From positions 1 through 42,434 of the forward strand of contig CAYIPT010000002.1 in assembly GCA_964365465.1 (NCBI GenBank): a stretch of 42,434 nucleotides of DNA, written 5' to 3'. The notes beneath the pieces are model-generated. The model worked only from the letters and a program-made list of their open reading frames with translations. It was not told the origin of the DNA and made no database searches. Source of the DNA: an uncultured Candidatus Saccharibacteria bacterium (lineage in GTDB: Bacteria; Patescibacteriota; Minisyncoccia; Phycocordibacterales; WO2-35-19). Positions within the stretch are counted from its first letter, which is position 1. Every line of letters starts with the position of its first letter. Shown here piece by piece: positions 28,144 through 38,662 of this stretch. The position numbers and the translations under genes were made by a program.

Positions 28144-28180
28144 AACGGCTCATTTCCTGCTAAATGAGCCGTTAACTTTT
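28144..28180. terminator. Bidirectional hairpin terminator between convergent genes
   Basis: aacggctcattt-cctgct-aaatgagccgtt (12-bp stem) followed by aactttt. Confidence 0.7.
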
Positions 28181-29354
28181 ACAAAAAATGCTGCAATCTT
28201 TTGGTTTTTTCGTGCTGGCGCATTTTTTCAAGGGCCTTGGCTTCAATTTGACGAATACGCTCGCGGGTGACGCCGAATTCTCTCCCCACATCTTCCAGGG
28301 TGTGGTATATGCCGTCTATTAACCCATTGCGCATCTCTATTATCTTTTTTTCTTTTGGTGGCAAATCAGCCAAAATTTCGGAGAGCTGGTCGCGAATAAT
28401 ACGGCGGTTTGAATCCTGCTCCGGCGAGGCGATTTTTTCATCCGCCATAAAATCGCCCAGCGTTGATTTGCTATCATCCTCGTCTCCCACCGGTGTCTCA
28501 AGCGAGACGGTGCCTTGGTCAATTTTTTCAATCATATAAATTTTTTCCGGCTCCAGGCCCATTTCCACGGCTATTTCTTCTGGCAAAGGATCCCGTCCCA
28601 AATCCTGCGATAATCTGCGGACAACTTGCTTGTATTTGGCTATGGTTTCAACCATATGAACCGGCACCCTGATGGTGCGGCTTTGGTCGGCTAGGGCTCG
28701 GGTGATGGCTTGCCTAATCCACCATGTGGCGTAGGTGGAAAACTTGTAGCCCTTTGTATAATCAAATTTATCGACGGCCTTGAATAAACCCAAATTTCCC
28801 TCCTGAATTAAATCAAGCAAAGTTAAATCGGAACTGCGACCGACATATTTTTTAGCAATAGAAACCACTAAGCGCAGGTTGGCTCTGGCCAAAATATTTT
28901 TGGCTTCCTCGTCCCCGTCCAGTATTCTTTTGGCTAATTCTTTTTCCATAGCGCCGGAAATGAGGGCGTGTTGGCCTATTTCTTTGAGATACATTTGGAT
29001 GGAATCGTAAGAGGCCTCGTCTTTGAAAAAATCCTTGCTCTTGTCTTTTACAACTTCATCCAAAAGCCGACCGCCTTCCAAAATATCTATGCCGGCCGCG
29101 GCGCACTCCTCGTATATTTCTTCCAACATTAAAACATTATCCTCAATGGTCGGGAATTCCTTTAAAATTTCATCAAAAGTAATAAAGCCCCTTTCTTTGC
29201 CCTTGGCCACAAGGTTTGTCTTTTTTAAGAGAGATTCAGGTAATGTTTTTTTTGTTTTTTTTGATCCGGCCCTTTTTATGGTTTTCTTTTTGGGTGGCAG
29301 TTTTTTTCTCTTGATTTTTTTAAGCTTTTTTGCTTTGTGTATTTTTTTAGCCAT
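28179..29354 (-). CDS. rpoD: Primary RNA polymerase sigma factor
   Basis: 391 aa. Regions 2-4 include [13 protein letters not shown] and [18 protein letters not shown]. Confidence 0.9.
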
Positions 29355-29360
29355 TTTATT

Positions 29361-30929
29361 TTAATAATTATTTTTTTTAATATTTTTTTGTATCTCTTTA
29401 AATTCGGTTTTCAGTTTTTCTTCCTCCTCTTTTGAAATATTTTTGTCATCAAGCATAACAGCCACCCTTTGAAGCTCTTGTTTCATTTTTTTTAATTCAC
29501 TTCTTCTTTCTATTTCTTCTTTTGTTTTTTTAATATCTATTTTAAAGCCATATCTCTCGGCTTCAAAAATCAGCGCTTCTTTCTCGTCTTTAAAATCTTT
29601 TTCTTTTTCTGATTTTTCCATCTTTCCGTCTTTGCTTTTTTCAATTTTTTTAAAATCATTCCAAACATCTTCTTCCCCCACTCTAATTTTTTGGGCTATC
29701 TTTTTTATGAATTGAGTTTTTTCTATTTCACTCTGGATAAGGCGCGCCAGGGGCAAAACATTTTTGGTTATTTCTCTGGTCAAATTTCGGCCCTCATTTT
29801 CTCTAACGGCTTTATTCAAAGCAAAATCCGTAAAATGTTCCGATTCCCGCAGGGCTCTTTTCCATTTCTTTGGATCTTCTTTGACCACCGAAGCCGGATC
29901 TTCTCCTCTGGGCAAGGAGGCGATTTTTGCTTCCATTCCCAAGCTTAAAGCCAATTCAGCCGCCCTCCAAGAAGCTTTTTCTCCAGCCTCATCCGAATCA
30001 TACGCCATAATCACCCGGTTTGAAAGCTTTTGAATTTTTTTTAAATGAAACTCGGTCAAGGCGGTGCCTGAAGAGGCCACGGTATTTAAAACGTCGGCCT
30101 GATGGGACATTACAAGATCCATCTGACCCTCCACCAAAACCGCGTAATCCAATTTGCGGATATAATTTTTGGCAACATTGAATCCGTATAAAACTTCCGA
30201 TTTGTAAAATAATTTTGTTTCCGGAGAATTTAAATACTTAGGTGTTTTCTCATTCTCTTGCATTGCCCTGCCAGAAAAGGCTATTGTTTTTCCGTTAATG
30301 TCAAATATGGGGAACATGAGCCGGTTTCTAAAAGTATCATAGTATTTATTTTCATTTTCCGTCTTTTTTATGAGCCCGACAGAAAGCATTTCTTCTTTGG
30401 AAAATTTTTGATTAATTAAATAATCATGCAAGCTTCTCCATTCGTCCCTGACAAAACCCAAGCGCCATTTTTCTATTGAATTTTTTGCCAGCCCTCTTTT
30501 TTCTAAATATTTCAAAGCTATTTTATTTTCCACAAGTTCTTTTTCAAAAAACTTGGTTGCCTCTTCCATAATTTCGTACATCCTTTCTTTCTCTCTATTT
30601 TCTCTGTCAACTTCTGCCGAATTTTCCGCTCTGAATTTATCCAATTTAACTCCGGCTCTGTCTGCCAAATTTTTTAACGCCTCCTTAAAATCAACACCTT
30701 CAAACTTTTGGACGAAAGAAAAAATATCCCCCTTTTCTCCGCAACCAAAGCAATAAAAACTTTGCCTGGTCGGAGAAATAAAAAAACTGGGCGTTTTCTC
30801 GTTATGAAAGGGGCATTTGGCCTTGAAATTAATCCCCGCCTTCTCTACCTTTATATATCCGGATATAACATCCACAATATTCAGCCGTTCCTTTATTTGT
30901 TCCGTATTTGATGGCATTTTATTATTCAC
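29361..30929 (-). CDS. dnaG: DNA primase
   Basis: 522 aa. Zinc finger CPFHNEKTPSFFISPTRQSFYCFGCGEKGD and Toprim motifs EGQMD...DSDEAG. Confidence 0.9.
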   Translation of the reverse strand: MNNKMPSNTEQIKERLNIVDVISGYIKVEKAGINFKAKCPFHNEKTPSFFISPTRQSFYCFGCGEKGDIFSFVQKFEGVDFKEALKNLADRAGVKLDKFRAENSAEVDRENREKERMYEIMEEATKFFEKELVENKIALKYLEKRGLAKNSIEKWRLGFVRDEWRSLHDYLINQKFSKEEMLSVGLIKKTENENKYYDTFRNRLMFPIFDINGKTIAFSGRAMQENEKTPKYLNSPETKLFYKSEVLYGFNVAKNYIRKLDYAVLVEGQMDLVMSHQADVLNTVASSGTALTEFHLKKIQKLSNRVIMAYDSDEAGEKASWRAAELALSLGMEAKIASLPRGEDPASVVKEDPKKWKRALRESEHFTDFALNKAVRENEGRNLTREITKNVLPLARLIQSEIEKTQFIKKIAQKIRVGEEDVWNDFKKIEKSKDGKMEKSEKEKDFKDEKEALIFEAERYGFKIDIKKTKEEIERRSELKKMKQELQRVAVMLDDKNISKEEEEKLKTEFKEIQKNIKKNNY

Positions 30930-31028
30930 ACTTTAAAACTTGACATAATTTTTAGTTTTGCTACACTTTTGCTGTAAATGCTTTCCTTGTCGAAAGCCCC
31001 GAGATTCCCCCACAAGGGGGTTTCGTTT

Positions 31029-31808
31029 TTATACAATATTTCCCATTTTTAATTTTATTTCTTTGAGCTCATCATTATCAATTTTACCCATAAATCTTAA
31101 CAATCTTTTTGCATCAAAAAGCCTAATTTGGGATAAAATCAAAGTTGAGCCGGAAAAAGAAATTAACCCGTGATAATATTTACCCCCTTTCTCTTCATTA
31201 GATGTTAATGGAATTCCTAAAAATATATTATTGTTAAACTTTCTTACTATCAAAACAGGTCGTTCATAATCAGAATGTTTTCCATCCTCTTCATCTCCTA
31301 TATTTTTACCTATAGAGGCGAGCCAAATTTCTCCTTTTTGAAAATAAACTCGTTCCCTGTTAGAAAGTTCTTTTTTCTTAATATTCCATTTGTCATAATT
31401 TTGATCCATAGAAGATTTTAAATTCACAATTATTTTCAAAATATCTTTATTAAGAAAATTCTCGGGTATTTTTTTGAGATTAAACCACCCCCACTCCTTA
31501 AATTTTTCCGGTTCCATCAAAATTGGCTCTTCTTTTGTTTCGCACAAAAAAACATAAACTTTGTCTCCTTCTTTCGCTCCAGCCACAATCCCAAGTTCTT
31601 CTTTTATTTCAAAATTTTTAACCCCAATTTCTTCTTCAACTTCTCGTCTCAATGTAGTTTTTACATTTTCCCCTTCGTCACATCTTCCTCCTGGTGTGGT
31701 CCAAAAATCTCCATCTTTGTATTGCTTGGTTTTGTAATTACGCAAACCAAGCAAGACATTTTTGTCTCTTATAAAAATTCCCGCGGTGCATATTGGCGAA
31801 CGAGCCAT
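31029..31808 (-). CDS. Nudix hydrolase fused to a MazF/PemK-family toxin domain
   Basis: 259 aa. The Nudix box GRCDEGENVKTTLRREVEEEIGV fits Gx5Ex7REUxEExGU exactly. The C-terminal half, GEIWLASIGKNIGDEEDGK..ERPVLIVRK...GIPLTSN...LILSQIRLFDAKRL, aligns with MazF/EndoA. Confidence 0.85.
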   Translation of the reverse strand: MARSPICTAGIFIRDKNVLLGLRNYKTKQYKDGDFWTTPGGRCDEGENVKTTLRREVEEEIGVKNFEIKEELGIVAGAKEGDKVYVFLCETKEEPILMEPEKFKEWGWFNLKKIPENFLNKDILKIIVNLKSSMDQNYDKWNIKKKELSNRERVYFQKGEIWLASIGKNIGDEEDGKHSDYERPVLIVRKFNNNIFLGIPLTSNEEKGGKYYHGLISFSGSTLILSQIRLFDAKRLLRFMGKIDNDELKEIKLKMGNIV

Positions 31809-31819
31809 AATTTTTTATT

Positions 31820-34800
31820 TCAATTTCCTTGATCCAACTCCTTTTGCAGTTCTTTGATCATATTGTATTTTTCGCTGCCGGGGAAGCCGGAACCGGCGGG
31901 GATGAGTCGGCCGATGATGACATTTTCTTTAAGGCCTTTTAGTTCGTCTTCGGTGCCGCGCAGGGCGTTTTGAATAAGCATTCTGGTTGTGTGTTGGAAC
32001 GATGCGGAAGAAAGGAAACTTTTTCTGGAAAGAGAAACTTCCGTAATGCCCAAAAGCAAAGCCTCCGCTTTGGCCTCTTCCCCACCCGCTTCTTTGACTG
32101 CGTCATTTTCTCTTATGAAATTGCTTTGGGCGACGATGTCCCCTTGGGAAAATCTCGTCTCGCCTGAAGTTTTTATTTTTCTTCTAGAAAACATTTGTTT
32201 GATAATAACCTCAATGTGTTTTCTGGAAACCGGTTCTCCTTGCAGCTCGTATATTTTTGTTATTTCGTGAATAATATAATTTTGGGTTTTTTCCTTGCCG
32301 GCATATTTGAACAATTCATCCAAATCAACGGAGCCGTCAGTCAGCAAATCGCCCTTGTTCACCTTATCTCCCGTTTTAACCAAAACTACCCGATGATAAT
32401 TTGCCAGATATTCGGTATTGGATTTGCCCTGTTTTTTGCTAGCCGGTTTTTCCGCTTCTTCCGGCAAAATTGTTATTATTTTATCTTTGCCGTCCACTTT
32501 TATTTCGCTCACTATGCCGTCCACTTTGCAGACCACTGCTGGATTTTTAGGGGGCCTATTTTCAAAGACCTCTTCCACTCTTGGCAAACCTTGGGTGATG
32601 TCTCCGCCAACCGAAGCGGTACCGCCGGCATGGAAAGTGCGCATAGTTAACTGAGTGCCCGGTTCGCCTATGGCTTGAGCGGCCACGGTGCCGATAGCTT
32701 CTCCCAATTCAATTATTTTATTTTTTCCAAGATCGGCTCCGTAGCAGTGAATGCAAATGCCATCCAATGTCTTGCATGTAAGCGGTGATCTGACCAATAC
32801 ATTTTCCACTCCGGCCGCCTCTATTTTAGCGGCATCATCGCGGGAAAGAAAATGATTTCTTTTAAATAAAACATTTCCCCCTTTGTCCTTGAGATCCTCC
32901 GCCAAAAATCTGCCCTTGGCTATTTTGGCTATGGAAACTTCAATACCAGAAGAAGTTATTTTGGAAAGGATTACCCCTTCTTTGCTGCCGCAATCTTCTT
33001 CGGTAATCAAACAATCCTGAGCTACGTCAAAAAGTTTTCTGGTCAAATAACCGGCCTTGGCGGTGTTTAGGGCGGTGTCGGCCATGCCTTTTCTGGCGCC
33101 GTGGGTGGTGATGAAATATTCTATGGGCGTCAAACCCTCTTTGTTTGAAGAAATTATAGGAAAGTCAATGGTTTCTCCGGCGGTGTTGACAATCAACCCT
33201 TTCATACCGGCCATCTGGGTCAATTGGCCCATAGAACCTCTGGCACCTGATTTCACCAAGTCATAAACAGAACCCCTTTTATCCATGGACTCCTGCATTG
33301 ATTTTTCAATCTCATTTTTGGTGGCTGTCCATATTTCAATATTTTTGGCCCTTTTTTCATTATGTGAAAGCAATCCCGTATCATACTGCTCTTGAACTAA
33401 AGCCACTTTTTCTTTGGTCCCATCCACAATTTCATATTTATTTTTAGGTACCACCACATCCGAGATGCTCCATGTTATACCCGAAACAGTAGCGTAGTGG
33501 AAACCGAATTCTTTTATTTTGTCCATAATGGGCGGTATGGACTCTATGCCGTATTTATGAATAAGGTCGTCAACCATGAGAGCTAATTTTTTCTTGTCTA
33601 TTTCCGCGTTAACGAAAGGATAATCATTAGGCAAAACGGCATTAAACAAAAGCCGGCCGACACTTGTTTCAAATAATTCATTATTGAATTTTGCATACTT
33701 GGGGGAATCAGTACCCAAGACCTTTATTTTGGCTCTGTAATCAACAACATCAAAATCATGGGCGGTGATGGCTCGGTTAGGAGTCGGAAATATCATACCC
33801 TCGCCTTTTTCCCCGTTTACTTCCTTGGTCATCCAGTAACATCCGAGAATTATATCCAACAATTTGTTTGAAATGGTCGGATCGCCGCTACCCGGCTTCA
33901 AAATATTTTTATCCGAGGCCATTATCATTTTGGCTTCCAGCTGGGCTTCGGGAGAGAGGGGCACATGGACGGCCATCTGGTCGCCGTCAAAATCGGCATT
34001 AAAAGCGTTACAAACCAGAGGATGCACCCGAATGGCATTACCCTCAATTAAAATCGGTTTGAAGGCCTGAATACCAAGCCGGTGCAAAGTTGGCGCTCTG
34101 TTCAAGAGAACATATTTATCTTTTATAACTTCTTCCAAAATGGCCCAAACTTCTGGTATGGCATCATCAATCAAACGACTGGCGCCTCGGACATTGTAAG
34201 CCAACTCCTGTTTCAGGACTTGCGATATGACAAATGGCTTGAAAAGTTCCAAAGCCATATGCTTAGGCAAACCGCATTGGTGAAGTTTCAATTCCGGACC
34301 GACAACGATAACTGACCGTCCCGAGTAGTCAACCCTTTTGCCCAAAAGATTTTGGCGAAACAATCCCCGTTTGCCTTTCAAATTATCTGCCAGCGATTTC
34401 AATTCCCTGGTCTTGTTTGAGGAAACCGTCTGGTCTTTGTTGTTGTGCCTGATGGAATTATCAATCAAAGCATCCACTGCCTCCTGTAGAATTCTTTTTT
34501 CATTTCTCAAAATAACATCCGGCGCGTTTATTTCTTTAAGTTTTTTTAATCGATTGTTTCTGTTTATAACTCTTCGGTAGAGGTCGTTGACATCTGAAGT
34601 GGCGTATCTGCCCCCATCAAGGGGCACCATAGGCCGCATAGCTGGAGGAATAACCGGTATTCTGGTCAGGAACATCCATTCTGGCCTGGTATTTGATCTT
34701 ATCATGGCCTGAATAACCGAAAGCCTCTTAGTGATTTTTATTGACTCGGCGGACTTTGAACTTTCCAATTCTTTTTTTATATTTTCTTCCAAAACTTTCA

Positions 34801-35488
34801 GATCTATGGTTTTGAAAATATCATAAATTGCCTCCGCTCCTATTTCAGCCTCAAAAAACGCGCCGTATTTTATGGAATAATTATGGTAGGCTACCTCGTC
34901 TATGACCTTGCCTTGGGCAATGCTTTCTATTTCTCTTTTGGTTGAAAGCAGCTTTTCTTTTAGTTCGTCTTTTTTCGTTTCCTCCGTTATCTGTTTTATT
35001 TTTGATTTGAATTCTGCATCCAGGTCGCGCAAAATATTTTGTTTTTCTTCAGCCGAGACCTTGGTGATAATATAGCCGGCGAAATAAATAACTTTTTCTA
35101 TGTCAGCCGCGGTCACATCAAGAAGTAAAGCGATGCGGGAAGGCATGCTTTTCAAAAACCAAATATGAGCCACTGGCGCCGCCAGATCAATATGGCCCAT
35201 TCTTTCCCTCCGAACGATGGAACGGGTAATTTCCACTCCGCATTTCTCGCAAACAATACCTTTGTATCTGATGCCTTTATATTTTCCGCAATAACACTCA
35301 TAGTCCTTGTCTGGACCGAAAGTTTTCTCGTCAAAGAGACCATGTCTCTCGCTTCTCTGGGTGCGATAATTTATGGTTTCCGGTTTGGTCACCTCTCCGA
35401 ATGACCAGCTTTTTATCACTTCCGGAGAAGCCAAGGAAAGCCGCATTAAATCAAAGTCCGTATTTGAATTTTGGTTTCTATTTTGCAT
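31820..35488 (-). CDS. rpoC: DNA-directed RNA polymerase subunit beta'
   Basis: 1222 aa with NADFDGDQM at the catalytic site and a Zn-binding CxC..CxxC at the N-terminus. Confidence 0.95.
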   Translation of the reverse strand: MQNRNQNSNTDFDLMRLSLASPEVIKSWSFGEVTKPETINYRTQRSERHGLFDEKTFGPDKDYECYCGKYKGIRYKGIVCEKCGVEITRSIVRRERMGHIDLAAPVAHIWFLKSMPSRIALLLDVTAADIEKVIYFAGYIITKVSAEEKQNILRDLDAEFKSKIKQITEETKKDELKEKLLSTKREIESIAQGKVIDEVAYHNYSIKYGAFFEAEIGAEAIYDIFKTIDLKVLEENIKKELESSKSAESIKITKRLSVIQAMIRSNTRPEWMFLTRIPVIPPAMRPMVPLDGGRYATSDVNDLYRRVINRNNRLKKLKEINAPDVILRNEKRILQEAVDALIDNSIRHNNKDQTVSSNKTRELKSLADNLKGKRGLFRQNLLGKRVDYSGRSVIVVGPELKLHQCGLPKHMALELFKPFVISQVLKQELAYNVRGASRLIDDAIPEVWAILEEVIKDKYVLLNRAPTLHRLGIQAFKPILIEGNAIRVHPLVCNAFNADFDGDQMAVHVPLSPEAQLEAKMIMASDKNILKPGSGDPTISNKLLDIILGCYWMTKEVNGEKGEGMIFPTPNRAITAHDFDVVDYRAKIKVLGTDSPKYAKFNNELFETSVGRLLFNAVLPNDYPFVNAEIDKKKLALMVDDLIHKYGIESIPPIMDKIKEFGFHYATVSGITWSISDVVVPKNKYEIVDGTKEKVALVQEQYDTGLLSHNEKRAKNIEIWTATKNEIEKSMQESMDKRGSVYDLVKSGARGSMGQLTQMAGMKGLIVNTAGETIDFPIISSNKEGLTPIEYFITTHGARKGMADTALNTAKAGYLTRKLFDVAQDCLITEEDCGSKEGVILSKITSSGIEVSIAKIAKGRFLAEDLKDKGGNVLFKRNHFLSRDDAAKIEAAGVENVLVRSPLTCKTLDGICIHCYGADLGKNKIIELGEAIGTVAAQAIGEPGTQLTMRTFHAGGTASVGGDITQGLPRVEEVFENRPPKNPAVVCKVDGIVSEIKVDGKDKIITILPEEAEKPASKKQGKSNTEYLANYHRVVLVKTGDKVNKGDLLTDGSVDLDELFKYAGKEKTQNYIIHEITKIYELQGEPVSRKHIEVIIKQMFSRRKIKTSGETRFSQGDIVAQSNFIRENDAVKEAGGEEAKAEALLLGITEVSLSRKSFLSSASFQHTTRMLIQNALRGTEDELKGLKENVIIGRLIPAGSGFPGSEKYNMIKELQKELDQGN

Positions 35489-35491
35489 TTT

Positions 35492-38400
35492 TTATAAATT
35501 ATTATTTTTTTCCAAGAGTTCTATATTCAAGGCCAGTCCCCTTAAATTATTAACAAGAACATTAAAGGCTGCCGGCAAATTTTCTCCCTTTATTCTTTCG
35601 CCCTTGACAATAGCGTCAAAGGCGGCGCTTCGGCCTAAAATATCATCTGATTTTATGGTAAGCATTTCTCGTAATGTGTAGGCAACACCGTGTCCCAAAA
35701 GCGCCCAGACCTCCATTTCTCCAAATCTTTGTCCACCACCCTGGGCTTTTCCGCCCAATGGTTGTTGAGTGATAAGGGAGTAGGGACCAATAGAACGCAT
35801 GTGTATCTTGTCTTCCACCATGTGGTCAAGTTTGAGAATATACATATATCCTATGGCTGTTTCTTGTTTGAAGGCCTCTCCGGTTCGGCCGTCATAAAGC
35901 TGAACTTTGCCGTTTTTATTCCACCCGGCCTTTTTTAATTCTTCTTCTATTTCTTCATCAGTGGCGCCGGCAAAAGGAGGCACAATGGCCTGATAACCGA
36001 GAGTTTTGGCGGCTAATCCCAAATGCATTTCCAATATTTGGCCCAAGTTCATGCGGCTCGGCACCCCGAGCGGAGTGAGAATAACATCAATAGGCGTGCC
36101 GTCGGCCATATAAGGCATATCTTCGGCTGGCAATATTTTTGAAATGACTCCTTTGTTGCCATGGCGGCCAGCTAATTTGTCTCCAACGGAAACATTTCTG
36201 ATTTGGGCGATTTCTATGTGAATTCTTTTTATAATTCCGGATTCAAGTTTATCGCCCTTCTCTCTGCTAAAGATCTGAACATTTATGATTCGACCTCTCT
36301 TGCCTCCCTCCATTCTTTTGGAAGTATCTTTGACATCGCGAGCTTTTTCTCCAAAAAGAGAACGCAATAATCTTTCTTCGGGAGTGAGCTGGCTTTCTCC
36401 TTTTGGCGTAATTTTGCCGACCAAAATATCTCCCGAATTAACCTCGGCTCCCACTCTGACAACGCCGTCCTCAGCCAAATTTTTAAGTTTAGCTTCGCCA
36501 ACATTCGGTATGTCGCAAGTGGTTACTTCCGGTCCCAGTTTGGTGTCGCGTACGCTTACTACCACCTCATCTATATGTATTGAAGTGAACTTGCTGTTCT
36601 TGATAAGATTTTCAGAAAGAATAATGGCATCTTCATAATTTGATCCTGACCAGGACAAAAAGGCAATCAGAACATTTTGACCCAAAGCCATTTCTCCTTG
36701 CACCGATGTTAAGGTGTCGACTAAAATGTCTCCGCGTTTTACATGGTCGCCGACATTAACAATAGGTCTTTGGTGGAAGCAGGTGGCGCTGTTTGTTTTG
36801 GCAAAGTTTATAAGTTGATATCCGGTTTTAATGTTTTTGGCTTCGGTAATTTCAATTAATCTGCCGTCTACTTTTGAGACGACACCGTCATTCAGAGCTA
36901 TAATCAGTCGGCCAGTGTCTTTCATGGCTGAACTCTCTATACCAGTAGCTACCAAGGCTGCCTCTGGCTCTACGCAAGGCGTGGCTTGTTTTTGCATGTT
37001 GGAACCCATGAGTGCTCGGTTAGCATCATCGTGATTCAAAAATGGAATTAACGAAGTGGCTATGGAAAAGGCCTGATTGGTAGCTATATCCACGTAATCA
37101 ATCTTGGATTTTGGTATCAAATCGGGCATGCCGTTAAGGCGGGCTTCAACCATTTCTTCTTTTATGTTGCCGTGCTCGTCTTTTTCTATGGTGGCGTGGG
37201 TGATGGCAAATTTTTCTTCTTCCAAAGCGTTCAAGTATTCTATTTCACCGGTCAGTTTGCCGTTTTTAACTTTGACATAAGGGGTTTCAATCATGCCGAA
37301 TTCGTTTATGCGCGCATAAAGAGCCAGGTGCAGAATTAAACCGATATTCGGGCCTTCAGGAGTATGAATAGGACAAAGTCGTCCGTAATGGGAAGGGTGG
37401 ACATCACGCACTTCAAAACCGGCTCGGGAACGATTAAGACCTCCGGGACCTAAAGCAGAAAGTTGTCGTAAATGCTCAATTTCAGCCAGAGGATTTTCTT
37501 GACCCATAAATTGAGAAAGCTGGTTGGTGGTGAAAAATTCCTTAAGTCGAGCTTGTAGTGGCTTGGGCATTATAAATTGAATAGGCAAAGTGACATCAGT
37601 ATCTACCGTAGACATTCTGTTTTGCATGTTGCGTTTTATTTGAGCCATGCCGATACGGAATTTTTGTTGCATCATTTCTCCCACATATCTGACTCTTCTG
37701 CTTCCCAAATGATCTATATCATCTTCTATAGAATTAGGAGTGATATTCAGAGATATAATTTGATTTATAACCAATCTCAAATCGTCAATATTCAAAGTTC
37801 TCCTGTCTGAACCTTTTCCGCTGATCGGCAAATTGAATCTGGAATTGAATCTGAATCGGCCCACTTTTTGCAAATCATATCTCTCGGGACCGAATAAATT
37901 TTTGAAAAATTCTTTGGCATTATCAGCGGTGGCCAAGTCGCCGTCTCTCAGTCGCCTGTAAATTTCAATAAAAGATTCGTCCGCAGTTTTGGCGTGGTCT
38001 TTAACAAAAGATCTTTCCAAATATTCTTTGGCGTCTTTGTTATCTTTAAAGAGGTTGTAAATTTCAGAATCGGTTTCGGCCCCGAAAGCTCGCAGAAGAG
38101 AGGTAACTGAAAACTTTCTTTTTCTGTCAATGCGGACATAAATCGCTTTATCAACATCGGTTTCAATCTCTATCCAGGCGCCGCGAGCGGGAATTATTTT
38201 AGCCCCGAATAAGGTCTTGCCCTTTACCTCCAAACTGGTAAAAAAAGCGCCAAAGGATCGGGCCAGCTGAGGCACAATAACCCGCTCAACCCCGCTCACT
38301 ATAAAAGTGCCATGCGAAGTCATCATTGGAAAATCAGCCATAAAAAGCTCTTGTTCCTTTTCAACATTTAATGTCTTATTTGTCAGGCGCACCTTAACTT

Positions 38401-38662
38401 TAAGCGGCGCTTCGTAGGAAAGTTTTTTTTCTTTGGCGTAATACTCGTCGTATTTGGGCTTCTCCAGTTCAAAGCCCAAAAATTCAAACTTGAATTTTTT
38501 ACTGGAAAAATCATTTATAACCGCAAATTCATCAAACACTTCTTTTATGCCTTTCTCAACCAGCCAATTAAACGACTCTACCTGATCTTTTACCAGGTTT
38601 GGAATTGGCACCAATGATTTCCTAAACTTACTAAAATATTTTTTAGGCAATACTTTATCCAT
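35492..38662 (-). CDS. rpoB: DNA-directed RNA polymerase subunit beta
   Basis: 1056 aa. Contains GRHGNKGV, FGEMEVWAL and other conserved motifs. Confidence 0.95.
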   Translation of the reverse strand: MDKVLPKKYFSKFRKSLVPIPNLVKDQVESFNWLVEKGIKEVFDEFAVINDFSSKKFKFEFLGFELEKPKYDEYYAKEKKLSYEAPLKVKVRLTNKTLNVEKEQELFMADFPMMTSHGTFIVSGVERVIVPQLARSFGAFFTSLEVKGKTLFGAKIIPARGAWIEIETDVDKAIYVRIDRKRKFSVTSLLRAFGAETDSEIYNLFKDNKDAKEYLERSFVKDHAKTADESFIEIYRRLRDGDLATADNAKEFFKNLFGPERYDLQKVGRFRFNSRFNLPISGKGSDRRTLNIDDLRLVINQIISLNITPNSIEDDIDHLGSRRVRYVGEMMQQKFRIGMAQIKRNMQNRMSTVDTDVTLPIQFIMPKPLQARLKEFFTTNQLSQFMGQENPLAEIEHLRQLSALGPGGLNRSRAGFEVRDVHPSHYGRLCPIHTPEGPNIGLILHLALYARINEFGMIETPYVKVKNGKLTGEIEYLNALEEEKFAITHATIEKDEHGNIKEEMVEARLNGMPDLIPKSKIDYVDIATNQAFSIATSLIPFLNHDDANRALMGSNMQKQATPCVEPEAALVATGIESSAMKDTGRLIIALNDGVVSKVDGRLIEITEAKNIKTGYQLINFAKTNSATCFHQRPIVNVGDHVKRGDILVDTLTSVQGEMALGQNVLIAFLSWSGSNYEDAIILSENLIKNSKFTSIHIDEVVVSVRDTKLGPEVTTCDIPNVGEAKLKNLAEDGVVRVGAEVNSGDILVGKITPKGESQLTPEERLLRSLFGEKARDVKDTSKRMEGGKRGRIINVQIFSREKGDKLESGIIKRIHIEIAQIRNVSVGDKLAGRHGNKGVISKILPAEDMPYMADGTPIDVILTPLGVPSRMNLGQILEMHLGLAAKTLGYQAIVPPFAGATDEEIEEELKKAGWNKNGKVQLYDGRTGEAFKQETAIGYMYILKLDHMVEDKIHMRSIGPYSLITQQPLGGKAQGGGQRFGEMEVWALLGHGVAYTLREMLTIKSDDILGRSAAFDAIVKGERIKGENLPAAFNVLVNNLRGLALNIELLEKNNNL

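Follow-up and report, generated by a model that had tools for sequence, protein, structure and literature searches.

How did a MazF-family RNase domain come to be fused to a Nudix hydrolase directly behind rpoC, and what would control the RNase there? The question is raised by one open reading frame (ORF) in a 42,434-nt stretch of DNA, which as a whole is called the window below. The relevant genes and the parts of the fusion are the following.

35492..38662: rpoB, ahead of rpoC (Pfam domains)
31820..35488, minus strand: rpoC, RNA polymerase beta' subunit, directly upstream of the fusion (ORF list)
31029..31808, minus strand: Nudix–MazF fusion ORF, ATG start, 259 aa (ORF list)
31410..31808, minus strand: Nudix half, residues 1-133, with a MutT-like fold, Nudix box, C-terminal helix and the bridge K131-S132-S133 (Pfam, AF2, Foldseek)
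31416..31418, minus strand: codon AAA (K131), aligned with the stop codon of stand-alone Nudix homologues; putative stop loss, TAA>AAA (alignment A1)
31029..31409, minus strand: PemK/MazF half, M134-V259 plus stop (Pfam, clade alignment)
29361..30929, minus strand: dnaG primase, downstream of the fusion on the same strand (Pfam Zn_ribbon_DnaG, DNAG_N, Toprim)
28179..29354, minus strand: rpoD, after dnaG (Pfam Sigma70 r1-r4)

The Nudix–MazF fusion is a genuine in-frame ORF, read in the window without an internal stop under table 11. The rpoC gene, stop codon included, ends at 31820 and the ATG of the fusion lies at 31808, leaving a gap of 11 nt, and a further gap of 100 nt separates the fusion from dnaG; the placement between rpoC and dnaG-rpoD given by an earlier, sequence-only reading of this DNA agrees with these coordinates. 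The exact 259-aa protein was found on five contigs from separate replicate groundwater assemblies (Hainich H43 replicates R2 and R3, the Logan assembly of ERR3858118 and the 42-kb contig are represented), which makes a frameshift in a single assembly unlikely. The idea that the fusion is a sequencing or assembly error of low-coverage metagenome contigs, such as an overlooked stop codon or an indel, is hardly credible. The supporting contigs do have low coverage (cov_4 and cov_5 in their names) and come from one site, and one base separates the fusion from two genes, but the identical product recurs in independently assembled replicates handled by two assembly pipelines, and the ORF is continuous in the window.

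Neither the 11-nt nor the 100-nt gap flanking the fusion can hold a protein-coding partner, and its neighbours are rpoC and dnaG, not the adjacent MazE/PemI antitoxin gene of a type II module. Across 26 PemK loci, no cluster of small conserved neighbour genes recurred that could represent a protein antitoxin. The absence of a MazE-like partner, as claimed from the sequence, is thus borne out by both the window and its relatives. The accompanying claim that there is no room for an antitoxin gene stands for proteins and falls for RNA, since a conserved convergent small RNA (sRNA) gene, described below, fills the 100-nt gap.

The N-terminal half matches NUDIX (PF00293) at residues 8-119 with an E of 2.8e-18 and 66.7 bits against a cut-off of 21.1. 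Its Nudix box reads GRCDEGENVKTTLRREVEEEIGV, with zero mismatches to GX5EX7REUXEEXGU, so the textbook box first reported for this half is real. In the AF2 model most of the half has a pLDDT above 90 and adopts the Nudix alpha/beta/alpha fold, with MutT 4dyw (E 2.4e-9, TMt 0.70), NUDX1, NUDT15 and BdRppH (rank 6) among the top Foldseek matches and 5zro matching at a TMt of 0.81. The nearest relatives are the stand-alone Nudix proteins P0006 (78% identity) and P0007 (73%). The half had been likened to RppH-type enzymes, and we rejected this identity: the best RppH model, NF001938, gave 33.4 bits against a cut-off of 116 and other RppH models scored lower, so the equivalog cut-offs (at least 116) were missed, and MutT-, NUDX1- and NUDT15-like structures match as well. 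Judged from its sequence, the Nudix half is a generic MutT-like domain. PADLOC matched this half only, to PDC-S07.

In the C-terminal half, PemK_toxin (PF02452) covers residues 158-254 (E 5.9e-10, 39.8 bits against a cut-off of 23.1), and its identity to the 126-aa stand-alone PemKs of loci L016-L026 is 70-80%. A profile of this clade aligns with B. subtilis MazF/EndoA (4mdx/1ne8) across the whole MazF core at an E of 4e-8, confirming the proposed likeness to MazF/EndoA, and in the alignment the RPVL arginine, the PLT(S/T) threonine and the SQIR..D.KRL strand are in register with BsMazF. R183 (ERPVLIV) and T202 (IPLTS) of the fusion align with the vRPVLVI and ITAQ regions of 4mdx; their equivalents in BsMazF are R25 and T48, which we take to be catalytic. 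All of 25 clade members have the arginine at the catalytic position, and most have T or S at the threonine position. Loss of these residues, which the earlier reading had named as something to look for, has not occurred in the fusion, and the clade invariants W8, G34, N36, G38, E40, G43, R50, Q94 and R102 are all kept as well. The RNase of the PemK half is probably intact, and this half may have RNase activity and be toxic. An N-terminal F/Y-D-x-W-N-x-x-K-K extension precedes the MazF core. The AF2 model has a confident beta-rich domain at 160-242 followed by a C-terminal helix; the 50 Foldseek matches shown for the model were all Nudix structures. Because the segment between the domains, 140-147, has a pLDDT below 50 and the full model has a pTM of 0.62, no defined interface between the two domains is predicted.

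An exhaustive phmmer search covered 1.84 billion representatives. Among the 150 best matches listed, no other protein had the order Nudix(N)-PemK(C); they cover one half only, save P0137 and P0196, in which the two domains stand in reverse order. Among 54 word-index matches, both domains were present in the fusion itself (P0001) alone. In the sequences searched, the Nudix-then-PemK fusion is confined to one population. In six related Paceibacterota the slot between rpoC and dnaG is occupied by a stand-alone PemK of 126 aa, the start of which matches M134. L021, L023, L024, L025 and L029 share the order rpoC-PemK-(small membrane protein)-dnaG-rpoD, and the rpoC of the window clusters with theirs; L016 also has the order rpoC-PemK-dnaG-rpoD, with extra genes inserted. 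As read from this gene order, the ancestral state is a stand-alone PemK behind rpoC. The PemK ATG lies 3-30 nt past the upstream stop in eight of the nine loci read and 67 nt past it in L020; lying only a few bases behind rpoC, the stand-alone PemK is therefore probably co-transcribed and translationally coupled with the upstream gene.

The junction of the fusion reads aat tta AAA tct tct ATG gat caa, in which an in-frame 6-nt spacer, tcttct, is followed by the PemK ATG. In the protein alignment A1 the stand-alone P0006 and P0007 end in ...KIIKKL* and ...IIEKI*, and the 3' end of the Nudix gene in L015 reads ctg TAA aaatc. On the other side of the junction, M134 falls at the start codon position of the stand-alone PemK clade members. 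We infer that the fusion arose by loss of the Nudix stop codon, for which a single substitution would suffice because the 6-nt spacer is in frame. In the population of the window a MutT-like Nudix gene that has no stop codon lies between rpoC and PemK. As that stop is missing and the spacer is in frame, translation would continue from Nudix into PemK. Since the original PemK start M134 is kept, free PemK may be made too, by internal initiation at this codon.

The PemK clade is found mainly in CPR/Patescibacteria. There are several PemK paralogues per genome, and L016, L017 and L021 each have a pair that lies within 8 kb; copies at about 80% identity occupy different genomic contexts, and other clade members sit between tsaE and polA. 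The metagenome scan used a single sequence, P0085, as its query. Copies of the module of this clade were also observed in Sulfuricurvum. A phage origin of PemK was considered and rejected, as no close relatives were present on the viral contigs searched. An AF2 model of P0002, a 194-aa paralogue, in which we looked for an antitoxin-like N-terminal domain, was poor (pLDDT 47.7).

At the PemK loci, DNA homology runs about 100 nt beyond the PemK stop although the next gene differs. In the window this region carries two features on the strand opposite to PemK.

30940..30967, plus strand: sigma-70-type promoter of the sRNA, TTGACA, 16 nt, (TGc)TACACT (promoter scan)
30974..31031, plus strand: candidate sRNA of about 58 nt with two hairpins, convergent with PemK (terminator scan, covariance model)

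From its 5' end, the sRNA consists of GUAAAUG, hairpin B (30980-30997, loop CUUGUC), the linker CCCCGAGA, hairpin A and a U-run. Hairpin A was found by the terminator scan at 31000-31025 on the plus strand, and its U-run overlaps the PemK stop codon. The minimum free energy is -19.7 kcal/mol (z -3.05). The promoter has 10 of 12 consensus matches and an extended -10 TG; in L004, L007 and L010 the -35 and -10 elements are kept and the spacer sequence varies. Promoters with at least 10 of 12 matches, mostly ending 4-5 nt before the RNA-model match, were found in 37 of 47 loci, compared with 0.8% of random 48-mers. The covariance model matches the window at 30972..31034 (plus strand) with 83.5 bits (R1) and 65.9 bits, E 8e-17 (R2). 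In alignment A4, which was not fitted to the model and holds closely related sequences, paired cells make up 96.5%, and two-sided changes occur in 6 of 16 pairs. In alignment A7 two-sided changes were found in 14 of 15 pairs, counts that are inflated by the fitting of A7 to the covariance model, and the covariation score was 0.508 against at most 0.17 in slid controls. These data establish the element, its strand, its promoter and its covariation, and a transcript with a 5' end and termination of its own is predicted from them.

Unpaired sequence of the sRNA, GUAAAUG and CYCCGAGA, is conserved in addition to the pairs. We asked whether the element could be conserved as protein. Across homologues it is translated in three frames, giving the tails ETPLSRGISEAEA, GPRGPKAFVP and GVSRAPFG; the conservation is therefore at the nucleotide level, and a conserved C-terminal peptide was rejected as its cause. 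A tiny mRNA, with a 24-codon ORF from the AUG of GUAAAUG, was likewise rejected: the length of hairpin B varies by 8 nt, so that the frame beyond it is not the same at every locus, and this AUG is absent from the 'type 2' and Sulfuricurvum versions of the sRNA. No Rfam 15 family reached its gathering score at the sRNA in 23 loci, nor did relaxed thresholds give any family at the sRNA at an E of up to 10 in the window or up to 1 in seven loci. One sub-threshold Rfam match lay near a PemK 3' end, ctRNA_pND324 at L045 750-861, with 32.5 bits against 45.

The association of the sRNA with PemK is tight. All 47 covariance-model matches in the 422 kb searched are antisense to a PemK gene, 44 of them at its 3' end, and the linkage is kept in L102 and L112, where the RNA lies upstream and divergent. 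The distant members L033 and L041 have no U-run after hairpin A, L032 and L035 have the promoter alone, and in L034 and L037 the element was not seen. PemK genes are thus almost always accompanied by a convergent sRNA, one copy per gene. The sRNA may act as an antitoxin or regulator of PemK. Its gene lies antisense to the stretch that overlaps the PemK stop or directly follows it, and the RNA would pair with any read-through transcript. Control at the PemK start, as in par/Fst, was rejected, because complementarity of the sRNA to the translation-initiation region is not enriched. RNAduplex gave no enrichment over control windows for the 5' part of the sRNA against the PemK start region in 16 loci or against both candidate starts in the window.

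On balance, the most probable reading of the locus is a lineage-restricted fusion of two normally separate genes, in which the PemK RNase is partnered with the sRNA and the Nudix domain is a passenger. The resident gene would be a PemK/MazF-family endoribonuclease, represented by the C-terminal 126 residues of the fusion, and the sRNA, rather than the Nudix domain, would control it. The sRNA could do so by binding the PemK protein as a pseudo-substrate, as in type III systems, or by pairing with the 3' end or a read-through part of the PemK transcript, as in type I systems.

The sequence-only reading had instead offered a dedicated RNA-decay enzyme or a Nudix-gated toxin. Functional coupling of this kind, with the Nudix domain as an RppH-like 5'-pyrophosphohydrolase or decapping aid to decay, or as a nucleotide-sensing cis gate that replaces an antitoxin, is improbable: this fusion occurs in one population among the listed matches, PemK stands alone in six genomes, and the clade is promiscuous in its partners. 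It would draw support from the intact look of both domains and from BdRppH among the structural neighbours. PemK-Nudix combinations also recur, with at least two fusions in reverse order (P0137, P0196), a Nudix gene after PemK in L035 and P0152, whose N-terminus is MazG-like by eye and joined to PemK (Pfam matches the PemK half only), so a functional link to nucleotide pyrophosphohydrolases is possible. A parallel is E. coli mazG, an NTP pyrophosphohydrolase gene that lies in the mazEF operon. However, L035 is the only one of 26 genome loci in which a Nudix gene adjoins PemK, and the fusion partners elsewhere in the clade are unrelated enzymes (YdjC, glyoxalase, PALP, HNH, kinase, cytidylyltransferase, epimerase, hexapeptide transferase). 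In C-terminal fusions, the reverse PemK-Nudix ones included, the ORF continues through the sRNA gene, with model matches inside the ORFs (L123 503-559, E 1e-15; L124 2907-2964), and the closest relatives of the reverse fusions bear a kinase or unknown domain, not Nudix. The RppH scores of about 33 bits, the equal match of the MutT, NUDX1 and NUDT15 folds and the lack of a predicted interface between the domains argue in the same direction.

Somewhat less remote, and still unlikely, is that the PemK clade is, in CPR bacteria, a domesticated housekeeping enzyme of RNA processing or decay rather than a toxin, for which the sRNA would be a substrate, a cofactor or an insulating bidirectional terminator with an antisense promoter, the fusion being neutral. 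Six loci have PemK in a stable syntenic place behind rpoC, and others have it between tsaE and polA. This suits the explanation, as selfish toxins do not usually keep a conserved place in core operons such as rpoBC and tsaE-polA. So do the tight spacing of PemK behind the preceding gene, without a recognised promoter of its own, the lack of close relatives on viral contigs, the lack of a PADLOC defence-model match to the PemK half, and hairpin A with its U-run, which is a good terminator for the sRNA strand. On the other hand, paralogues, nearby double copies and copies about 80% identical in varied contexts are more typical of mobile toxin modules. The dedicated promoter and the conserved unpaired sequence far exceed the needs of a terminator, and the sRNA is still linked to PemK where it lies upstream and divergent.

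Beyond the fusion, we tentatively propose, as a real possibility that falls short of an even chance, that the sRNA and the PemK clade form a previously unrecognised toxin-antitoxin or RNase-regulator module: a MazF-fold RNase checked by a single-copy, promoter-bearing RNA, widespread in CPR/Patescibacteria, located at the 3' ends of core genes such as rpoC and prone to fusion with adjoining genes, with the Nudix fusion as one such event. Nothing relevant on a Nudix and MazF fusion was found in the literature searched; the PemK–sRNA pairing was compared with the literature only in part, and an earlier description is possible. The fusion itself is minor, a single-population event that shows how readily the PemK RNase gene fuses with its neighbours. 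What matters is its context, a large family, found in ultra-small CPR bacteria, of MazF-like RNases without protein antitoxins, inside essential operons and tied one-to-one to an sRNA outside Rfam. If the sRNA neutralises or regulates the RNase, an RNA-antitoxin solution would be added to the best-studied type II toxin family, and the borders between type I, II and III systems would be blurred. It would also provide a testable RNA-protein pair in organisms with almost no known regulatory RNA, and explain why searches for adjacent protein pairs would call such MazF genes orphans.

Compared with known systems, the clade shares the PF02452 family and the core alignment with the type II MazF/PemK/Kid toxins (B. 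subtilis MazF/EndoA YdcE; PDB 4MDX, 1NE8, 4ME7). It differs from them in having a convergent sRNA partner and no MazE/PemI gene, and in the window it is fused to Nudix. Relative to BsMazF, the clade proteins are longer by about 22 residues at the N terminus, where W and K are invariant (F-D-x-W-N-x-x-K-K), and have five residues inserted ahead of the catalytic arginine. In Myxococcus xanthus, the regulator protein MrpC controls a solitary MazF, which is not known to have an associated small RNA and is encoded by a single gene, whereas the PemK clade is multi-copy. Like the clade proteins, this MazF homologue has no MazE gene next to it (PMC2701414).

RNAs have been connected with mazF and pemK genes before. 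The pemK RNA motif, presumably a bioinformatically defined motif named for its association with pemK genes, differs from the clade sRNA, because no Rfam 15 match was found at the latter. This motif is named as an Rfam family (10.1101/2024.10.12.618037). In E. coli, the antisense RNA of mazEF, aMEF, modulates expression of the locus; it is reported to act on a classical MazE-MazF pair, to stimulate expression instead of inhibiting it and to have a poorly conserved promoter (PMC8749433). In contrast, the clade locus has no MazE, and its promoter and RNA structure are strongly conserved.

Like the type I systems par/Fst (RNAI-RNAII of pAD1) and, from B. subtilis, TxpA/RatA and BsrG/SR4, the clade has an sRNA directed towards the toxin gene and a terminator hairpin that is shared with the toxin 3' end or adjoins it. 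The par/Fst, TxpA and BsrG toxins are small membrane peptides, whereas the toxin candidate of the clade is a 126-aa soluble MazF-family domain and not a hydrophobic peptide. Moreover, unpaired sRNA sequence is conserved in the clade, and pure cis-antisense action needs none.

Type III antitoxins consist of tandem repeats that precede the toxin gene on its own strand and are processed by the toxin. No such tandem direct repeats were found upstream on the same strand in the sequences read; the clade sRNA occurs as one copy with a sigma-70 promoter and a terminator of its own, and in most cases it converges on the 3' end of the toxin gene. Nevertheless, the clade resembles ToxIN, CptIN and TenpIN in pairing an endoribonuclease that lacks a protein antitoxin with a dedicated structured RNA encoded alongside, and the fold of ToxN is itself Kid/MazF-like. 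The conserved unpaired sequence of the sRNA and its linkage on either side of PemK would fit a protein-binding RNA, as in type III systems.

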